IMG/VR virus record: IMGVR_UViG_3300045988_154953
DNA length: 64,000 nt
DNA from: a virus
Strand: one strand, 5' to 3'
The position numbers were made by a program, and so were the translations under genes. Below are positions 29,376 to 39,699 of the stretch, piece by piece. Within the stretch, counting starts at the first letter, position 1. Every line of letters starts with the position of its first letter. A model generated the notes under the pieces. That model ran no database searches. It was not told the DNA's origin and saw only the letters and a list, made by a program, of their open reading frames with translations.

Positions 29376-29391
29376 TTACAAGGAGAAGAAT

Positions 29392-30048
29392 ATGATTAAA
29401 CTATTTACTCATAGTGACAGAGATGGACAAGGGTGCGCTGTTTTAGCTAAATTAGCTTTTGAAGACAATGTAGACATTGAATATTGTAACTATGACGATA
29501 TTAATGATAAAGTAAAAGATTTTTGCGCTAATTATTGTAGAGATAGAAACGTTAGAGAAAAATATGAACATGTTTATATTACAGACATTTCTATTACAGA
29601 AGAATTAGCTAGAAAAATAAATAATTTATCTCTATTTGAACATATCACATTATTAGACCATCATCCCACAGCTTTAAAATTGAATAAATTCAGTTGGTGC
29701 AAAGTTTCTGTTGATAATTCAGAAGGATTAAAGACATCTGGTACAGAATTGTTCTACCAGTGTCTACTTTCAACAAACTGCTTTTCTGATAAATTAAAAA
29801 GCAGTGAATACTTGAAAAGATTCGTTGAATTGACAAGGGATTATGATACCTGGAGATGGACAACTCTTGGTGAAAACGGGCTTATTTGTAAACAGTTAAA
29901 TGACCTGATGTACATTTATGGTATGGATAACTTTACTGATTGGTGTATAAAAGGAATATTAAATAAATCATTTCCTAGATTATCATTAGAAGATCAAATT
30001 GTTCTCAGTATTAGACAGCAGGAGATTGAAAATTTATTTAGGAAATAA
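29392..30048 (+). CDS. DHH-domain-only phosphoesterase-like protein
   Basis: HSDRDG, ITDIS and LLDHHPT motifs in DHH order. At 218 aa it lacks a DHHA1 domain. Confidence 0.5.
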   Translation: MIKLFTHSDRDGQGCAVLAKLAFEDNVDIEYCNYDDINDKVKDFCANYCRDRNVREKYEHVYITDISITEELARKINNLSLFEHITLLDHHPTALKLNKFSWCKVSVDNSEGLKTSGTELFYQCLLSTNCFSDKLKSSEYLKRFVELTRDYDTWRWTTLGENGLICKQLNDLMYIYGMDNFTDWCIKGILNKSFPRLSLEDQIVLSIRQQEIENLFRK

Positions 30049-31849: not shown

Positions 31850-32017
31850 TTGAATCCTATTATGTATTTAATAGTTATTGTGGATGCTATTATAGTTTGG
31901 TTTCTATTAACGATTGTGTTTAAACCATTAGGATCAATTATTTCTAAGATATGGGATGACACATCTAAAACATTAAATGAAAAAGAAGAGAAAGAAGAGG
32001 ATAACAAGAATGGCTAA
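31850..32017 (+). CDS. small membrane protein coupled to the SPFH gene (below the track cutoff)
   Basis: Hand translation gives LNPIMYLIVIVDAIIVWFLLTIVFKPLG..EKEEKEEDNKNG. TTG 31850 follows ggtga, or ATG 31862 could be the start. Its stop overlaps the ATG of the next gene (ATGGCTAA). Confidence 0.4.
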   Translation: MNPIMYLIVIVDAIIVWFLLTIVFKPLGSIISKIWDDTSKTLNEKEEKEEDNKNG

Positions 32018-32951
32018 AAGAAAAGGATTAATCGGTGGCGTTGGATTGGCAGTATTAATCATTGGTGGTTTGTTTGTTGGAATTTCCTGTACAGAGAAAA
32101 TTCCGGCGGGTTATGTCGGTGTAGTTTATAACTCACTAAACGGTGGTGTTGATGGAGAGGTTATCACACAGGGATGGCATCTCGTATCACCTACAAAGAA
32201 AGTCACTACATATTCAATCGGTATTGAACAGTCTTATCTCACATCAGAAGAGAAAGGTGATTCGCCAGTTGACGAAAGTTTTTCAACACCAACATCTGAC
32301 GGTAAATCATTAACAGTTGATTTGGAATTTTCATACAAGTTTGATCAGGATAAGATCGCTGATACATTCATAAAATTCAAGGGGCAATCTGGAAACACTG
32401 TTAAAGATACATTTATTAAACCTAAGATGAGAGCTTGGACACAGGAAGTTACAGCAAAATATCCTGTTACTGATGTTTTTGGTGATAAGAGACAGGAATT
32501 AAACGAAGCACTTGATGTGTATCTAAAGCAGAAGTTTGAACCATATGGTATTATTATTGACACTGTGAACTTCACAAATATCTCCACTGATTCAGAAACT
32601 GCAGAAGCAATTCAGAAGAAAGTTACAGCGCAGCAGGAATTAGAACTGGCAACTATTGAAGCTAAAACAGCTAAAGTACAGGCAGATAAAGACAAAGAAG
32701 TAGCTCTTATTGCAGCTGAACAGGAAAAAGAAAAAGCAGCTATTGTTGCAGAGCAGAAGAAAATTCAGGCAGAAGGCGAAGCACAGGCTACAAAGATTAA
32801 AGCTGATGCAGAAGCAGAAGCAAATGTAAAGATTGCTAAATCACTTACACCGGAGCTGATTGAAAAGCAGAAGATCGAAAAATGGAATGGTTCTGTTCCT
32901 ACAGTCCAGGGTAGTTCAACACCTATTGTCAATATGAGTGATGATAAATAG
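32010..32951 (+). CDS. SPFH/band-7 (prohibitin-like) domain protein
   Basis: An N-terminal TM helix, then IPAGYVGVVYN..GWHLVSP and a long Ala/Glu/Lys-rich coiled coil. ATG 32010 is in frame with the track start 31977. Confidence 0.7.
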   Translation: MAKRKGLIGGVGLAVLIIGGLFVGISCTEKIPAGYVGVVYNSLNGGVDGEVITQGWHLVSPTKKVTTYSIGIEQSYLTSEEKGDSPVDESFSTPTSDGKSLTVDLEFSYKFDQDKIADTFIKFKGQSGNTVKDTFIKPKMRAWTQEVTAKYPVTDVFGDKRQELNEALDVYLKQKFEPYGIIIDTVNFTNISTDSETAEAIQKKVTAQQELELATIEAKTAKVQADKDKEVALIAAEQEKEKAAIVAEQKKIQAEGEAQATKIKADAEAEANVKIAKSLTPELIEKQKIEKWNGSVPTVQGSSTPIVNMSDDK

Positions 32952-32968
32952 TTTTAGAAAACGAATTT

Positions 32969-33132
32969 GTTTGGTTATGGATTAAAATTTGATTCATAAC
33001 CAAACGATAAAGTAATCAGTATATTAAGTATTATTACTTGATATCTGCAGGTGATTTTGCACCTGAAAAGTGAGGTTAATAACACTCACTAAAATCTGTG
33101 TAATTAGATTCGAAATGTACATGTGAATTTGA
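32969..33132 (+). ncRNA. tracrRNA-like structured RNA, module A (boundaries approximate)
   Basis: Hairpins at 32969-33005, 33010-33039, 33048-33065 (caggtg/cacctg) and 33069-33090 (agtgag/ctcact). Next come taaaat and the anti-repeat ctgtgtaatt (33096-33105), which is the exact reverse complement of repeat bases aattacacag. A second partial anti-repeat lies at 33117-33130. Confidence 0.5.
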
Positions 33133-33236
33133 GGTTTTAGAGATATATTAAATTACATAGATACAAAACTCATGGACTCTATAAGATAAGTATGGTGTGG
33201 TTTTAGAGATATATTAAATTACACAGGTACATAAAT
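33133..33236 (+). CRISPR. mini CRISPR array A: 2 repeats, 1 spacer
   Basis: R1 33133-33170 ggttttagagatatattaaattacatagatacaaaact. Spacer 33171-33198 catggactctataagataagtatggtgt. R2 33199-33236 is 34/38 identical to R1. Period 66 nt. Confidence 0.55.
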
Positions 33237-33247
33237 AAGTCTATAGA

Positions 33248-33276
33248 TTTACATAATTATAAAATAATTATAAATA
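33248..33276 (+). promoter_or_regulatory. candidate promoter of the nuclease gene
   Basis: TTTACA, a 17-nt spacer, then TAAATA, about 20 nt upstream of ATG 33296. The background is AT-rich, so the call is weak. Confidence 0.3.
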
Positions 33277-33295
33277 TGAAGGATAACAAATAGCA

Positions 33296-35026
33296 ATGAA
33301 TACAATAAAAAATACATATATACGAACATTAAAATTTAATTTAAATTTAACACCAAAATTCGAAACAGAAGAAGATAATAAAAAATATATAAATGATGTG
33401 TATTCATATCTAAGAGATGCTATATGGGCACAAAATAGAGCTATGAATATTGTTCTTGATCGAACTAAAGAAGCTTATACACTTGGACGAGGGATGAACA
33501 GGGTTAAAGAAATATATTATTCATATTCCCATCAAAAACCAATTAGTAATGACAAAAAAGAAAGCTTCTTAGAATCATTGTTGCAGTATGCACCTATAGA
33601 CGATCAATTTGTAAAAAATGAAGTTAAAAAATTACGTAAATTCTATGAATCTAAAAAGAAACCACCAAAAGAAGAAACTGTTTCTAAAAATTGTGAAGCT
33701 TTAAAAAATAAGTACATAAAATATGTTGGTAAATCAAAAGATGATGTCAAACGAGAATTAGATTTACTTGAAAATTATTGTGCATATCCAGAAGATATTT
33801 ATGAAAAATTTGCTAACGGATTAAGCACACCTGCATATATAAAACAGAAAGTAGAATCTTATTGGAAACAGGATGGAATAAAAACAAAAGTTATTTACTC
33901 GATGGATGAAAATCTCAGACGAATAAAAGATGCTCCATTGTTCATACCACCAAATGTTTTTTACAATAAAAAAGATGAATTAATCGGTTTGGTATATGAT
34001 TATACTGACTATATATCTTTTTTAGAAGATTTAGAAAATAAACGAAATGTAAATATATATTTAAGTATTCCATATAAAAAAGGTGAAGATAAATTAAAAT
34101 TCAAATTAGTTCTAGGGAATCCACATAAGTCTCGTGATTCTAGATTATCCATAAAAAGAATTTTTGAAGAAGAATATAGAATTAAAGGCAGCAGTATTGG
34201 ATTTACGAAGAATAAAGAAACTGGCAAAAATACAAATTTAACTTTATATCTTACTGTTGAAGTCCCACAAAATAAAGATAATACTCTTGATGAGAATGTA
34301 GTTGTTGGAGTAGATGTCGGCATCGCTATTCCATGTGTATGTGCTTTAAATAACGATAAATATACAAGAGAAAATATTGGAAGTTATGATACTTTATTTG
34401 CTAAAAGAACCCAGTTTAAAATGCAGAGAAGTAGATTGAATAGTCAATTAAAATTATCAAAGGGTGGACATGGAAGAAAAAGAAAGTTAAAGAAATTAGA
34501 ATTACTTTCAGGAAAAGAGAAAAATTACGTTGATACAGAATGTAGAAAGTATGCAAGTGATGTAATTAAATTTTGTTTAAAACATCATGCTAAATATATT
34601 AATTTAGAGCACCTAAAAGGATATCGAGAGAATCCTAAAGTATTAGCTGGATGGAGTTTTTATAAAATCCAAACATATATTGAACAAGCAGCTGAAAAAC
34701 ATGGAATTATTGTAAGGAAAATTAATCCATGTTATACATCACAGATTTGTAGCGTATGTGGAAATTGGCATCCAGAGAATAGACCAAAGGGTAAATTAGG
34801 GCAAGCATATTTTAATTGTCATAATATTGATTGTAAAACTCATAATACAGATTTGTATAAATATGGTATTAATGCAGACTTTAATGCTGCTAGGAATATA
34901 GCAATGTCAACATTATTTATTACCGATTCTGATGAGATCACAAAGAAACATTGGAAAGAAGCCAGAGAATATTATGGTATAGATGAATCGGATGATAAAG
35001 AAGAAAAATTAAATAAAGTAGCCTAA
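33296..35026 (+). CDS. cas12: compact type V CRISPR effector / TnpB-like RuvC nuclease (Cas12f-like)
   Basis: RuvC-I VVGVDVGIAIP, GGHGRKRKLKKL, RuvC-II YINLEHLKG, WSFYKIQTYIEQAAEKHGI, zinc ribbon CYTSQICSVCG..FNCHNIDCKTH, and RuvC-III INADFNAARNIA. Repeat arrays flank it on both sides. Confidence 0.8.
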   Translation: MNTIKNTYIRTLKFNLNLTPKFETEEDNKKYINDVYSYLRDAIWAQNRAMNIVLDRTKEAYTLGRGMNRVKEIYYSYSHQKPISNDKKESFLESLLQYAPIDDQFVKNEVKKLRKFYESKKKPPKEETVSKNCEALKNKYIKYVGKSKDDVKRELDLLENYCAYPEDIYEKFANGLSTPAYIKQKVESYWKQDGIKTKVIYSMDENLRRIKDAPLFIPPNVFYNKKDELIGLVYDYTDYISFLEDLENKRNVNIYLSIPYKKGEDKLKFKLVLGNPHKSRDSRLSIKRIFEEEYRIKGSSIGFTKNKETGKNTNLTLYLTVEVPQNKDNTLDENVVVGVDVGIAIPCVCALNNDKYTRENIGSYDTLFAKRTQFKMQRSRLNSQLKLSKGGHGRKRKLKKLELLSGKEKNYVDTECRKYASDVIKFCLKHHAKYINLEHLKGYRENPKVLAGWSFYKIQTYIEQAAEKHGIIVRKINPCYTSQICSVCGNWHPENRPKGKLGQAYFNCHNIDCKTHNTDLYKYGINADFNAARNIAMSTLFITDSDEITKKHWKEAREYYGIDESDDKEEKLNKVA

Positions 35027-35038
35027 GTGCTACTAAAC

Positions 35039-35183
35039 CAGTCGAAAGACTGCGGTGTGTTTTGGTGTGTTTATATAGCCTCAAATATAAACACCGCTAT
35101 TGTGGATACAATAGTACGCCGAAAGGTGAGGATTCGTCACTCACTAAAATCCATGTTAAAACTTGTATCTATGGTAATTTGGG
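35039..35183 (+). ncRNA. tracrRNA-like structured RNA, module B (boundaries approximate)
   Basis: Hairpins cagtc-gaaa-gactg (35039-35052), gtgtttatat/atataaacac (35067-35094), ctattgt/acaatag (35097-35114) and gtgag/ctcac (35126-35144). Next come taaaat and the anti-repeat ccatgttaaa (35151-35160), the exact reverse complement of repeat bases tttaacatgg. Confidence 0.55.
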
Positions 35184-35352
35184 GATTAAGAAGTATATCA
35201 TTTAACATGGGTACAAAACTCTATAGAGATACACTGTATATTTAGTTATGATTAAGAAGTATATCATTTAACATGGGTACAAAACTCAGCACTGCATTTA
35301 TTTTTAGGCAGGCACGATTAAGAAGTATATCATTTAACACGAATATAAAAAT
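35184..35352 (+). CRISPR. mini CRISPR array B: 3 repeats, 2 spacers
   Basis: The repeat gattaagaagtatatcatttaacatgggtacaaaact lies at 35184-35220 and 35250-35286 (identical). A third copy at 35316-35352 is degenerate at its 3' end. Spacers: ctatagagatacactgtatatttagttat and cagcactgcatttatttttaggcaggcac. Period 66 nt. Confidence 0.7.
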
Positions 35353-35369
35353 GAAACGGAGACAACTAA

Positions 35370-35918
35370 TTGATTATTATTATTGGTAAAACCGCATCTG
35401 GTAAAGACACAATTGTAAAAGAGTTATGTCTAAATCATAATTTCAAAAAGATTGTTACATATACAACCAGACCAATGCGAGAAAATGAAATTGATGGCAC
35501 TACATACCATTATATATCAAATGAAGAATTTAAGGGAAAAATTAATGAAGGATTTTTTGTAGAATATAAATCCTACCAATCTGAATTCGGTGAATGGTTC
35601 TATGGAACATCTGAAGAGAGCATTCTAAATTCTGATGACAAATCTATTATAATTCTTACACCTCAAGGGTACAAAGATATCTTATCTAAATATCCCAATC
35701 TTAATTATAAATCCATTTATTTATATGCAAGTAATAGAACAATTAGAAAACGTTTAATACAGCGTGGAGACGATGAGGCAGAAGCAAAGCGAAGAGTTAG
35801 ACATGATAAGAAAGATTTTAGAGGTATTTATAAAATAGTAGATAAAGTTATTTGTAATAATCAAAATAAACAATTTGAGAAGGTAATAAAAGAAATATTG
35901 GATGTGATTAAAGAATGA
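35370..35918 (+). CDS. gmk: guanylate kinase-like nucleotide kinase
   Basis: P-loop GKTASGKDT and the signature TTRPMRENEIDGTTYHYIS. TTG start. Confidence 0.75.
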   Translation: MIIIIGKTASGKDTIVKELCLNHNFKKIVTYTTRPMRENEIDGTTYHYISNEEFKGKINEGFFVEYKSYQSEFGEWFYGTSEESILNSDDKSIIILTPQGYKDILSKYPNLNYKSIYLYASNRTIRKRLIQRGDDEAEAKRRVRHDKKDFRGIYKIVDKVICNNQNKQFEKVIKEILDVIKE

Positions 35919-36352
35919 TAAATAAAATGACAAATAGAATAAACGTATATCTTTCTGGAGCAATTAAGAATACAGACTATAAATTCCAAGATTGGAGAGA
36001 ATATTGTTCTGATTCCATTTTAGCTGGTTTTTATCCACATTTAAATATTATTGATCCCAATAAATTTTTCAATTATACCGATAAACAACCAAAAACAGAT
36101 AAACAATGTATGGATTTGTTTATGTATCTATTAAAGAAAAGTGATGTTTTATTGGTTAATTTGGATCAATCGAATAGTAGCGTAGGTACCGGCATGGAAG
36201 TAGAATATGCAATTTGTAATAACATTCCTATTATTGCATTTGGTAATAAACCAGAGACTTGGTATAAGTGGGTTGAGATAAGTGCAGCAGTTATATTAGA
36301 AGATGCAGAGGAAGCATTAGAGTATATTGATAACTCATACGGAGTTATTTAG
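35915..36352 (+). CDS. nucleoside 2-deoxyribosyltransferase-like protein
   Basis: VYLSGAI..DWR and GTGMEVEYA motifs resemble the NDT/Rcl fold. It sits in the nucleotide-metabolism context. Confidence 0.4.
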   Translation: MINKMTNRINVYLSGAIKNTDYKFQDWREYCSDSILAGFYPHLNIIDPNKFFNYTDKQPKTDKQCMDLFMYLLKKSDVLLVNLDQSNSSVGTGMEVEYAICNNIPIIAFGNKPETWYKWVEISAAVILEDAEEALEYIDNSYGVI

Positions 36353-36400
36353 TATAAATGAAACATGATGATTATAAATAAATTAAGAAAGGATGATTAA

Positions 36401-37276
36401 ATGAAAGTAGTCAAGAGAGATTGTACGCTGGTAGATTTTGATAAAAATAAAATTTACACAGCGATAATGAAAGCGATGAAGGATGGATCAGGAATTGTGA
36501 AGCCGAAGGTAGCAGAAGACATCTCAAATGAGATATATGAAATGCACAAAAATGACGATGAAATCGACATTTCAACCATCGAATCAGAGGTCTTCGATAA
36601 ATTGATTACAAAAAAACAAAGACTTACTGCCAGAGCTTATGAAGGATATAGAAGTAAACGAGAGCTGCAACGAGAATATAACACTATAGATGATGAAATA
36701 ATCGGCCTTGTCGAAGATAAAAATGAATATTGGAAAGATGAAAATGCAAACAAAAATCCAATATTAAATCCAACGAAAAGAGATTATATTGCCGGTTCAG
36801 TAAGTACAGATGCAACAAAAAGATATTTATTATCACCAGAAATAGTACAAGCTCATATGGATGGTATTATTCACTTTCATGATGCAGATTATTTTATTCA
36901 ACATATGCATAATTGTGATCTAGTTAATCTTGAAGATATGTTACAAAATAACACTGTAATTAGTGGAGTATTAATTGAAAAACCACATTCTTTTTCTACT
37001 GCTTGTAATATAGCTACACAAGCCATTTCACAAATAGCAAGTAATCAATATGGGGGTCAAAGTGTTTCTTTGGCACATCTCGCTCCTTTCGTAGATATTT
37101 CAAGACAAAAAATAAGAGAAGAATTAGTAGAAGAATTTTCTTTATTGGGTTTCTCTAAGGGTGGAATTATAGACGAAGATTTTAATGCAGTTGTAGAAAA
37201 ACGTTTAAAGAAAGAAATTGAAAAAGGTGTTCAGACTATTCAATATCAATTAGTTACACTTATGACAACAAACGGT
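36401..37276 (+). CDS. nrdD: anaerobic ribonucleoside-triphosphate reductase, exon 1
   Basis: ATP-cone N-terminus (VVKRDCTLVDFDKNKI) and class III RNR body. The reading frame continues as ..LMTTNG | QAPFITIF.. when joined to 38332. Confidence 0.8.
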
Positions 37277-38331
37277 TAATTTTGGCTGTTGTAAAATCTT
37301 GTGAACCATGCCAATGGGTGTCTAATAAATTAGGCTAACGGTCAACTAACCTCAAGGGTAAGGTGGTAAGAGAACCTAAGTCCTGTAATAAGGATATGGT
37401 AATACCGTGTTAAGCGTTTTGTTTATAAAAATAAAAAAAGAAAGGGGGGGAATGAAAAATGTATGGATATATATATTTAACTACAAATCTAATCAACGAT
37501 CGAAAATATATAGGAAAACATAAAAGTGAATTTTATGACGATAAATATTATGGGAGTGGAAAGATTCTTTTGCAGGCTATATCAAAATATGGTATTGAAA
37601 ATTTTACGAATGAAATATTATACGAAGCGGATTACGCAGAAGAATTAAATAAAAAAGAAAAAGAATATATTTCATTATATAGAGGAAAATATGGAAAACA
37701 AATGTATAATATAGCGTCTGGAGGAGACGGGGGAGATACATACTCATCTAAATCTGAAGAAGAAAAAGAAGATTTTGTTAAGAAAATGGAGAAAATAAAT
37801 AGAGACAGATGTTCTTCGAAAGAATTTAAGATACAAGCTTCTGAACGTTTAACTAAAAAATATTCCAACATTGAAGAAAGAAAATTACAATCCGAAAGAA
37901 TTAAAAAAGCTTGGGATAATGAGCAATTAAAGGAAGATCAGAGCGAGCGATTAAAAAATTATTATAAAACACATAAAAAAGAAAATTCATATAATAACAT
38001 TCCATGTGGGATTAAATTTAATGGGGTAAAATATGAATTTGAAAGTGTTAAGCAATTAAAAAAATTCATAAAAGAAGAGTTTAATTTTGTCCCAGGAAAT
38101 TCAAAGATAAAACAGATGATGATTGATGGGACTAATGGTATTCCATATGTTTCTTTCTTTAAAAAATACAGTAATTTGAATGGCGCGTTACTTTATTATA
38201 AACAAAACGAAAATGTAGAGACTATGGGTGATGAATGTAGCCCAGTAGAGCATGAGATAGGCACATGCTCCAAGTGCAAGACTGAAATAGAAGAGATAGT
38301 CCGCTCTGCATAGAAATATGCAGATGGGGTG
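37277..38331 (+). mobile_element. group I intron interrupting nrdD
   Basis: The 5' exon ends in U (37276), which pairs as U-G in a P1 helix aacggu/gcuguu (37271-37276 with 37085-type guide at 37285-37290). The intron ends in G (38331). It has a GC-rich structured 5' core (37300-37420) and a conserved-looking aagagatagtcc near the 3' end. It contains a homing endonuclease ORF. Confidence 0.75.
37459..38313 (+). CDS. GIY-YIG homing endonuclease (intron-encoded)
   Basis: N-terminal GYIYLTTNLINDRKYIGKH..YYGSG is a GIY-YIG motif. It lies inside the nrdD intron. Confidence 0.8.
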   Translation: MYGYIYLTTNLINDRKYIGKHKSEFYDDKYYGSGKILLQAISKYGIENFTNEILYEADYAEELNKKEKEYISLYRGKYGKQMYNIASGGDGGDTYSSKSEEEKEDFVKKMEKINRDRCSSKEFKIQASERLTKKYSNIEERKLQSERIKKAWDNEQLKEDQSERLKNYYKTHKKENSYNNIPCGIKFNGVKYEFESVKQLKKFIKEEFNFVPGNSKIKQMMIDGTNGIPYVSFFKKYSNLNGALLYYKQNENVETMGDECSPVEHEIGTCSKCKTEIEEIVRSA

Positions 38332-39699
38332 CAAGCCCCTTTTATTACAATTTTCATGTATCTTAATGAAGCCAAAAACGAACAAGAAAAACACGATTTA
38401 GCTTTATTAATCGAAGAAATGCTTCATCAAAGAATCAAAGGAGTAAAAAATAAAGAAGGAGTTTATGTAGCACCTGCATTTCCTAAACTAATTTATGTTT
38501 TGGAAGAAGATAATATTCATGAAGATTCAAAATATTGGTATTTGACAAAATTAGCTGCGGAGTGTTCTTCTAAACGTTTAGTTCCAGATTATATTTCAGA
38601 AAAAATTATGCTTGAAACAAAAGGTGATGTATACACCTGTATGGGATGTAGATCATTTTTAACAGTAGATAGATTTTCTGATAAAGTTTCTAACATTGCC
38701 AATGCGAAAAATTACGAACCTGACAAACACAAATATTACGGACGCTTCAATCAAGGTGTAGTTACACTTTCACTACCAGATATTGCTTTATCTTCAGAAG
38801 GTGATTTCGATACATTTTGGAAAATTTTTGAAGAAAGAACTGAATTGTGTCATAAAGCACTTAGAATCAGACATGAAAGATTGCGCGGTACATTATCTGA
38901 TGTTGCTCCTATATTGTGGCAAGATGGTGCTCTTGCTCGATTAAAAGAACATGAAAAAATCGATAAACTTCTTTATGATGGTTATTCAACTATATCTTTG
39001 GGATATGCCGGTTTATATGAATGTGTAAAATATATGACTGGACATTCTCATTCTGATGAAGGTATTGGCGAAGAGTTTGGATTAAAAGTTATGCAAGCTC
39101 TTAATGATAAGTGTGCTCAGTGGAAAAATGCTGAAAATATAGATTATAGTTTGTATGGTACGCCTCTCGAAAGTACAACGTATAAATTTGCAAAATGCTT
39201 AAAGGCTCGTTTTGGTAAAGATGTATTTATTAGATTGGATGGATTTGATAGAAATTATATAACTAATTCATATCATATTCCAGTGTTTGAGCCAATTACA
39301 GCGTTTGAAAAACTTAGAATAGAAGCAAAATTCCAATTATTAAGTCCTGGTGGAGCCATTTCTTATGTAGAAGTACCAAGCATGTCTCATAATATTAATG
39401 CTTTGATCGAAGTTATCAAATTCATTTACTATCACATTCAGTATGCAGAAATTAATACTAAAAGTTGCTACTGTGAAAAATGTGGCTATGATGGAGATAT
39501 TCCTCTTGTACTAGATGAAAATGGTAAATATAGATGGGAGTGTCCACAATGTGGCAATATAGATAATACTACCATGGATATTGCTTTTAGAGTCTGTGGT
39601 TACATTGGTACTGCAAAAAATGGTGGTAATCAAGGACGATATGGTGATGTACATGATCGTGTATATCACTTAGATGATATAGAATATAATGAGAAATAG
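38332..39699 (+). CDS. nrdD: anaerobic ribonucleoside-triphosphate reductase, exon 2
   Basis: Continues the class III RNR. A C-terminal zinc site CYCEKCG..CPQCG is followed by a glycyl-radical-type RVCGY motif. Confidence 0.8.
   Translation, partial: QAPFITIFMYLNEAKNEQEKHDLALLIEEMLHQRIKGVKNKEGVYVAPAFPKLIYVLEEDNIHEDSKYWYLTKLAAECSSKRLVPDYISEKIMLETKGDVYTCMGCRSFLTVDRFSDKVSNIANAKNYEPDKHKYYGRFNQGVVTLSLPDIALSSEGDFDTFWKIFEERTELCHKALRIRHERLRGTLSDVAPILWQDGALARLKEHEKIDKLLYDGYSTISLGYAGLYECVKYMTGHSHSDEGIGEEFGLKVMQALNDKCAQWKNAENIDYSLYGTPLESTTYKFAKCLKARFGKDVFIRLDGFDRNYITNSYHIPVFEPITAFEKLRIEAKFQLLSPGGAISYVEVPSMSHNINALIEVIKFIYYHIQYAEINTKSCYCEKCGYDGDIPLVLDENGKYRWECPQCGNIDNTTMDIAFRVCGYIGTAKNGGNQGRYGDVHDRVYHLDDIEYNEK

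Follow-up and report, generated by a model that had tools for sequence, protein, structure and literature searches.

A probable guide-RNA cassette of a type V-F1 Cas12f system beside its nuclease gene in a phage genome

The window studied here, a stretch of 64,000 nucleotides (nt) from the IMG/VR virus record IMGVR_UViG_3300045988_154953, is phage DNA and encodes a DnaB-like helicase, RecJ, a DNA polymerase, exonuclease V, NrdD and tail fibres. Neither DNA nor protein searches found a close relative among the GenBank phages. Our subject is the region 32969-33295, which sits between a Band-7/SPFH gene (31977-32951) and an open reading frame (ORF) of 576 amino acids (aa). An earlier note on this DNA, called here the original prediction, had described the region as a tracr-like RNA (after the trans-activating RNA of CRISPR, short palindromic repeats that are clustered and regularly interspaced) with a two-repeat array serving the adjacent nuclease. 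Direct-repeat analysis reveals a repeat pair at 33134 and 33200 with a period of 66 nt, and a related repeat occurs three times downstream of the ORF, at 35184, 35250 and 35316. A shared block GTGAGG..CACTCACTAAAAT precedes both repeat sites, which we call module A (upstream) and module B (downstream). An Rfam scan of 32000-36500 gave 0 matches at E <= 1 to any curated model. With a probability of roughly 0.82 we regard module A as one of the two self-contained cassettes for guide RNA that belong to a Cas12f system of type V-F1 (V-U3-like), carried by the phage and devoid of an adaptation module.

The best PADLOC models for the 576-aa ORF are Cas12u3 (E = 1.2e-74) and Cas12f (E = 2.6e-70); it also matches the Pfam profile Cas12f1-like_TNB (E = 1.9e-13) and, with 126 bits, the NCBIfam model guided_TnpB of the RNA-guided TnpB family. 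Identity as Cas12f2 was ruled out, as the score of 84.8 bits for the equivalog NF049972 is well under the curated cut-off of 450 bits. A search of the PDB with a profile of 18 homologues found CnCas12f1 (8HR5, E = 4e-102) as best match, followed by the Rh, Al3, As, Sp and Un1 Cas12f proteins (identities of the entries from PMC13186708). The RuvC triad D340/E438/D528, which aligns with the motifs of CnCas12f1, and the zinc-ribbon cysteines are invariant in the 18 homologues. Because of these database matches and invariant residues, the predicted protein is assigned as a nuclease-competent Cas12f of the V-F1/V-U3 kind. The families cas1, cas2, csn2 and cas9 are not among the 25 listed of the 37 PADLOC families matched by the 74 ORFs of the window, which is only a part of the phage genome. 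The V-F1/V-U3 group was originally described without adaptation genes (PMC7229846).

Protein searches gave 439 relatives of the nuclease, and the surrounding DNA was examined for nine of them and for 80 IMG/VR loci, mostly contigs of 50-213 kb, many from human-gut samples. In all loci examined tracr-like blocks followed by mini-arrays adjoin the nuclease gene. A covariance model, R1, was built from 26 diverse modules with module A in the seed and module B outside it. Within the window R1 matches only 33047-33175 and 35102-35225 (E = 1.5e-12), and in 89 related loci it has 226 matches, all on the strand of the nuclease gene. Modules were counted from the covariance model together with filtered nhmmer, as the regular expression GTGAG..CTCAC under-detects them and unfiltered nhmmer over-counts by including single repeats. 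Of the 79 distinct nuclease genes compared, 48 are flanked on both sides by modules, 17 have them upstream only and 13 downstream only; some are accompanied by four or five modules. Downstream of the nuclease, the loci L023, L056, L075, L082, L090 and L060-L067 have a run of three to five tracr-plus-mini-array modules. Consecutive modules each have a different repeat with a matching anti-repeat. Four relatives from Clostridia-type bacteria or metagenome-assembled genomes (36-46% identity) possess one module, downstream, and no adaptation genes are among the PADLOC matches listed for their flanks.

The structure derived from the window was scored on an alignment of the 26 modules, with shuffled columns and slid partners as controls. 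Standard pairs occupy 94.2% of the cells, compared with 78% after column shuffling and 32-49% for slid partners, and 19 of the 31 pairs show changes on both sides. Stem 1 (33048-53/33060-65) is paired in 96.8% of cases, with both-side changes in five of its six pairs, and the stem 2 helix (33070-77/33082-89) is likewise supported. The duplex of anti-repeat and repeat (33094-33105 with 33151-33162) is paired in 89.8%, and eight of its 12 pairs are compensatory; the counterpart of anti-repeat 1 in repeat 2 is 33217-33228. The anti-repeat CTGTGTAATT had been placed at 33096-33105, correctly, and the pairing extends to 12 bp.

A second part of the pairing had also been proposed, at 33117-33130. 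The idea of a bipartite anti-repeat holds, but covariation puts the second element elsewhere: the loop of stem 1 (33055-59, TTTTG) forms a pseudoknot with the CAAAA at the 3' end of the repeat (33164-68), paired in 97.7% and compensatory in three of five pairs. The raw pairs include TTTAG/CTAAA, TTTCA/TGAAA, TTTCG/CGAAA, TTTGG/CCAAA, CCTTT/AAAGG and TTTGA/TCAAA. The sequence at 33117-33130 is present, but falls within the most variable, gappy part of the alignment, mostly in the linker, and overlaps with its 3' end the invariant ATTTGAG. The bipartite arrangement, in which the second part adjoins the guide, presumably resembles that of the solved Cas12f guide RNAs. Frequent G-U pairs assign the RNA to the plus strand.

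Folding and pairing energies agree with the alignment. The four hairpins of the original prediction (Table 1) were recovered in a fold of 32969-33132, with a minimum free energy of -52 kcal/mol (z = -7.15; 0 of 200 shuffles as good), and in a fold of 33019-33171 the anti-repeat pairs in cis with repeat 1 (z = -4.4). In the repeat:anti-repeat duplex, as had been stated, repeat 1 pairs through one G-U (-13.4 kcal/mol) and repeat 2 perfectly (-14.7 kcal/mol). Cognate duplexes reach -13 to -15 kcal/mol and are about twice as stable as non-cognate ones between A and B (-5 to -7 kcal/mol). Between the module B copies of the window and of locus L003, a C-to-T change in the anti-repeat goes with a compensatory G-to-A change on the repeat side. 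The conserved block GAAAAGTGAGG..CACTCACTAAAAT occurs in both modules (at 35122-35150 in module B) and forms the core of the RNA family detected by R1. The covariation, the folds and the cognate pairing energies therefore support the tracr-like RNA and its first anti-repeat; together with the calibrated covariance model and the classification of the ORF as Cas12f they bear out the assignment of tracr-like RNA and two-repeat array to the adjacent nuclease.

Table 1. Features of modules A and B and of the nuclease gene between them (positions in the window).
Feature	Position	Strand	Basis
17-bp hairpin just 3' of the Band-7 stop codon	32969-33005	+	fold
Hairpin 0, directly 5' of stem 1	33017-33047	+	folds
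Stem 1, CAGGTG/CACCTG, loop ATTTTG (33054-33059)	33048-33065	+	covariation
Stem 2, GTGAGG..CACTCAC, invariant scaffold core	33069-33090	+	alignment, covariance model
Anti-repeat 1, pairs with repeat nt 18-29	33094-33105	+	covariation, pairing energies
Variable linker, gappy unconserved alignment columns 80-102	33106-33126	+	26-module alignment
ATTTGAG motif, leader-end-like, adjoins first repeat	33127-33133	+	conservation
Repeat 1, 36 nt	33134-33169	+	repeat analysis, alignment; boundary from the spacer B2 protospacer
Spacer A1, 30 nt, TCATGGACTCTATAAGATAAGTATGGTGTG	33170-33199	+	repeat analysis
Repeat 2, terminal repeat, 3' handle degenerate	33200-33235	+	repeat analysis
Putative nuclease leader/5' untranslated region with TTTACA (33248-33253) and ribosome-binding site GAAGGA (33278-33283)	33236-33295	+	sequence
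Predicted 576-aa Cas12f (V-F1/V-U3) nuclease	33296-35026	+	profile and structure-database searches
Module B scaffold	35039-35183	+	covariance model (E = 1.5e-12), outside the model seed
Module B hairpin 0	35039-35052	+	
Module B stem 1, with 50-nt insertion	35053-59/35115-21	+	comparison with other type-2 modules
Module B pseudoknot loop TTTTG	35060-64	+	
Module B stem 2	35126-35144	+	
Module B anti-repeat	35149-35160	+	
Module B motif ATTTGGG	35177-35183	+	
Module B array repeats (last one degenerate)	35184-35219, 35250-35285, 35316-35351	+	repeat analysis
Module B spacers B1, B2	35220-35249, 35286-35315	+	repeat analysis

A small hairpin adjoins stem 1 in nearly all modules, module B included. 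The stem-1 loop frequently holds a structured insertion of 35-55 nt right after TTTTG in the downstream, "type 2" modules (35065-35114 in module B), while upstream modules usually have a loop of 6 nt and instead a long hairpin domain further 5'.

The spacers give the size of the array unit and, in some cases, the targets. Spacer B2 has a protospacer with 30 of 30 matches in human-gut metagenome contigs (L197:1359-1388, L198 and L199); it lies inside a 128-aa ORF and has the 5' flank TATTTTA, and one of the target contigs, of 101 kb, encodes a DNA invertase. Because the match of B2 ends exactly at the repeats, with the TC included, the unit consists of a 36-nt repeat and a 30-nt spacer. The two repeats, which have a 66-nt period, had been recognized before; a division of the period into 38 + 28 nt, with the 28-nt spacer of the original prediction, is thereby corrected to 36 + 30 nt, dimensions which we take to be typical of type II-A arrays. 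The spacers of L026/L028/L030/L031 and of L038 match opposite strands of one and the same 34-bp site, which belongs to an integrase gene on a different viral contig (L100:1493-1526), and CCA is found directly 5' of each protospacer of the L026 and L038 lineages. Neither B1 nor B2 has a match in IMG/VR, about 110 concatenated spacers of the family found none among the GenBank phages, and a widely shared spacer (TGGCAACAGAG...) was found in the arrays themselves only.

The observed flanks suggest that both T-rich and C-rich protospacer-adjacent motifs (PAMs) are used. These are the two classes of 5' PAM reported for Cas12f, and CCA fits the C-rich class of CnCas12f1 (PMC13186708). Judged by these matches, the arrays are working guide stores against other mobile elements.

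The array appears to grow at its tracr-proximal end. The heptamer ATTTGAG is present without change in 60 of 116 unique modules, its TTTGA positions are at least 94% conserved, and its conservation equals that of the RNA core. In the module alignment no covarying partner of it was found; a pairing of ATTTGAG with the TAAAAT/CTCAC segment of the RNA was considered and dropped, as the 26 modules showed no consistent covariation. In type II-A CRISPR loci the identical ATTTGAG/GTTT is known as the conserved 3' end of the leader, which together with the first repeat is needed for spacer integration (PMC5382924, PMC4330368). In the arrays of related phages the trailer spacers are common to a dozen loci and the tracr-proximal ones are unique or nested, which argues for spacer gain at the ATTTGAG junction (turnover is seen in L034, L035, L037, L039-L043, L097, L027, L029 and L033, and also in L006/L018/L019). 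The arrays thus seem to gain spacers at this end, with no adaptation genes found beside them. That the tracr gene also serves as the leader of the CRISPR array, and that the arrays are loaded in trans by a type II-A Cas1-Cas2(-Csn2) of the host, is a tentative idea which we hold to be possible but doubtful. The orientation of the spacers relative to the observed flanks shows no obvious fit to an NGG-type Cas9 PAM.

The cassette as a whole may change its place. The segment 33014-35290 is 92% identical to L003:2746-5004, and a flanking gene shared by both (29391-30045 in the window, 5898-6554 in L003) is downstream of the cassette in L003 but, in the window, 3 kb upstream. Therefore either the cassette has moved or the genomes were rearranged around it, which suggests a mobile or recombining unit.

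From these data we propose the following mode of action. The plus-strand scaffold, consisting of hairpin 0, stem 1 and stem 2, has an anti-repeat which pairs with the repeat type of its own module. Scaffold, array and nuclease mRNA would form one read-through transcript. A terminator scan found no plus-strand terminator between 32800 and 35030. In most family members the last repeat of the upstream array is degenerate or truncated, and the ribosome-binding site (RBS) follows within 0-40 nt, so that no room is left for a separate promoter. Because of these two observations we consider the nuclease to be probably expressed by read-through from the module. Within such a transcript the scaffold would pair in cis with repeat 1, as a natural single-guide precursor, and in trans with later repeats, and RNases of the host would trim the duplexes. 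A predicted Cas12f dimer would then use the first ~20 nt of the 30-nt spacer and cut PAM-flanked DNA of competing elements, and new spacers would be inserted at the ATTTGAG junction.

Several points weigh against this interpretation. Spacer A1 has no detectable target, the searches of IMG/VR (with 20 nt) and of the GenBank phages included. The PAM classes are based on one site for the clade of the window and on two for a clade that is 42% identical. RNA ends, co-transcription and processing are what we infer from sequence, and dimerisation and cleavage are presumed by analogy to characterized Cas12f proteins, in which an asymmetric homodimer cuts dsDNA next to a 5' PAM. A promoter inside 33236-33295 is still conceivable. 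Furthermore, the hairpin 32969-33005 may be terminator-like, or it may belong to the tracr-like RNA as a variable 5' domain; it lies outside the cassette shared with L003, which begins at 33014, and other family members have a different long hairpin at the equivalent position.

Among the alternatives, a coupling at the RNA level survives best, but we still consider it unlikely. According to this explanation array and nuclease mRNA would be one transcript, and pairing of the tracr-like RNA with the repeat remnant in the 5' untranslated region (UTR) would create an RNase III-type processing site or occlude the RBS, so that the output of nuclease would track the levels of the tracr-like RNA or of the ribonucleoprotein (RNP). 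It would fit with the spacing between the beginning of the terminal repeat and the ATG, ~30-75 nt in most relatives, with the retained conserved 5' part of the repeat (including AAATTACA) and the RBS ~10-20 nt further on, with the lack of a terminator or scan-detectable promoter between array and nuclease, and with the full pairing of repeat 2 to anti-repeat 1. However, the downstream arrays decay likewise from the 3' side, so that the pattern may be generic; moreover, the distance is not fixed, the gap in the window being among the longest.

The original prediction saw in repeat 2 the source of a guide-like RNA whose "spacer" would be the promoter region of the nuclease gene itself, a possible autoregulatory arrangement that it called speculative; in the model weighed here the RNP would bind this promoter or 5' UTR DNA and repress transcription. 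Repeat 2 pairs perfectly with anti-repeat 1, a repeat adjoins the 5' region of the nuclease in every locus with an upstream module (in L004 a single intact repeat runs directly into the UTR), and regulatory guides derived from repeats are known elsewhere (PMC10120712). Nevertheless, we judge this form of autoregulation to be very improbable. The anti-repeat pairing of repeat 2 is intact, but its 3' handle reads CATAAA in place of CAAAAC, so that the 5-bp pseudoknot helix has a central U.U mismatch where 25 of the 26 family modules have UA and one has UG. The only match of a guide made from repeat 2 would be the template that encodes it, and there the flank is the repeat sequence TAAA and not TTTTA or CCA; self-targeting would therefore be avoided, as in every array.

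The promoter on which the proposal depends fares no better. The hexamer TTTACA does exist at 33248, but the sigma-70 scan calls no plus-strand site there, and in the region it finds 16 promoter-like matches where 18.6 are expected. TTTACA lies within a 16-nt insertion that is absent from L003, the nuclease of which is 98% identical. In many relatives the terminal repeat is truncated into the RBS. The same terminal decay is seen in downstream arrays, with the RBS of the next gene adjoining: the guanylate-kinase gene of the window (TTG start at 35370, RBS GGAG) starts 18 nt after the degenerate repeat B3, hence a gene start next to a terminal repeat is not special to the nuclease. We infer that repeat 2 is an ordinary decayed terminal repeat and that 33236-33295 is the 5' UTR of the nuclease gene.

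It is hardly credible to us that module A is a regulatory mini-array, a crRNA-like (CRISPR RNA-like) element whose A1 is partly complementary to the promoter of a cas or cargo gene. The layout of two repeats and one spacer beside an effector gene does resemble the mini-arrays of PMC10120712, but A1 is replaced by an unrelated spacer in L003, where the scaffold is 95-100% identical, and has no match elsewhere in the window at up to 3 mismatches. Family-wide, seeds of spacers show no excess of matches to the region upstream of the cognate nuclease (mean 8.30 of 14 positions, compared with 8.28 for non-cognate pairs), and with their spacer turnover the arrays act as ordinary immune arrays. One match alone is notable: the first 14 nt of spacer B1 (35220-35233) match TCTATAGATTTACA (33240-33253), which overlaps the proposed -35 hexamer, at 12 of 14 positions. 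A score of 12/14 is reached by ~0.4% of the non-cognate comparisons; a TTTTA or CCA flank is absent and the segment is missing from L003.

Finally, that the flanking modules are transposon ends or the omega-RNA of a TnpB-type insertion sequence (IS) element deserves equally little credence: the protein does match TnpB models, module B, like an omega-RNA, begins close behind the stop codon (13 nt), and the cassette has a different position in a related phage, but arrays of several spacers with a 36/30 period and turnover near the leader, a separate anti-repeat backed by covariation, spacers that match foreign elements and not the flanking DNA, and Cas12u3 and Cas12f as best models all speak against it.

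Elsewhere in the window the NrdD gene is apparently split into two ORFs (36401-37279 and 38329-39699), with a 284-aa ORF without Pfam match between them (37459-38313), which may be an intron or homing-element insertion.

The system can be compared with several known ones. With the type V-F1 (formerly V-U3) Cas12f proteins that use a tracrRNA (CnCas12f1 8HR5, RhCas12f, Al3Cas12f) it shares the miniature effector (400-700 aa in type V-F) with RuvC and zinc ribbon, the lack of adaptation genes (PMC7229846), the long structured tracrRNA with bipartite repeat:anti-repeat pairing and the T-rich or C-rich flanks (PMC13186708). The nuclease of the window differs from CnCas12f1 in that the identity of ~45% is confined to the C-terminal half, the N-terminal half being longer and divergent. 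In contrast to the bacterial Cas12f relatives the system is phage-borne and has two to six or more modules of tracr and mini-array with cognate anti-repeats, which commonly flank the gene both upstream and downstream; the bacterial relatives have one downstream module.

Compact type V systems of phages, such as Cas-Phi/Cas12j, the V-F/V-U systems of huge phages and the "Cas12 hacker", are similar in combining an effector with short arrays in a large phage genome, in having no cas1 or cas2 and in carrying spacers against other mobile elements (PMC7162821; 10.1101/2025.01.20.633832). However, Cas-Phi needs no tracrRNA, whereas the system described here has multiple tracr modules. The Cas12 hacker was described with a single single-guide RNA (sgRNA), a PI domain and a GTN PAM, whereas the effector of the window is Cas12f-like; no match in our PDB search was described as Cas12 hacker.

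Regulatory guides derived from repeats, such as the crRNA-like mini-arrays (PMC10120712) and the long-form tracrRNA of Cas9, are alike in the short array or solo repeat by the promoter of the effector gene. The regulatory mini-arrays are conserved in close relatives and partly complementary to a PAM-flanked promoter, and neither is true of module A. With the leader-repeat junction of type II-A the modules share the heptamer before the first repeat, the 36-nt repeat beginning with GTTT, the 30-nt spacers and the place where new spacers appear; however, in the window it is the repeat's 3' half that the tracr-like RNA pairs with, and the guide is located on the 3' side of the repeat, as in the polarity of type V. 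TnpB of IS200/IS605 elements works with an omega-RNA as a single guide without repeats or spacers, whereas here multi-spacer arrays with turnover are found.

Since adaptation-less CRISPR systems of phages and the tracrRNAs of Cas12f are already known, the module is not of a new kind. Three aspects go beyond the published descriptions we found. The first is a large family of gut phages whose effector gene is surrounded by several complete cassettes of tracr and mini-array, every one of them with a matching anti-repeat. The second is the guide architecture defined by covariation, which offers ready sgRNA designs for a Cas12f clade of 540-580 aa. The third is the apparent gain of spacers at a type II-A-like leader end without integrase genes found, which makes it a testable question who loads the arrays of these phages. 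If loading by the host should prove true, a type V effector would receive its spacers from a pirated type II adaptation machinery, and the orthogonal tracr-array cassettes would be swappable units.

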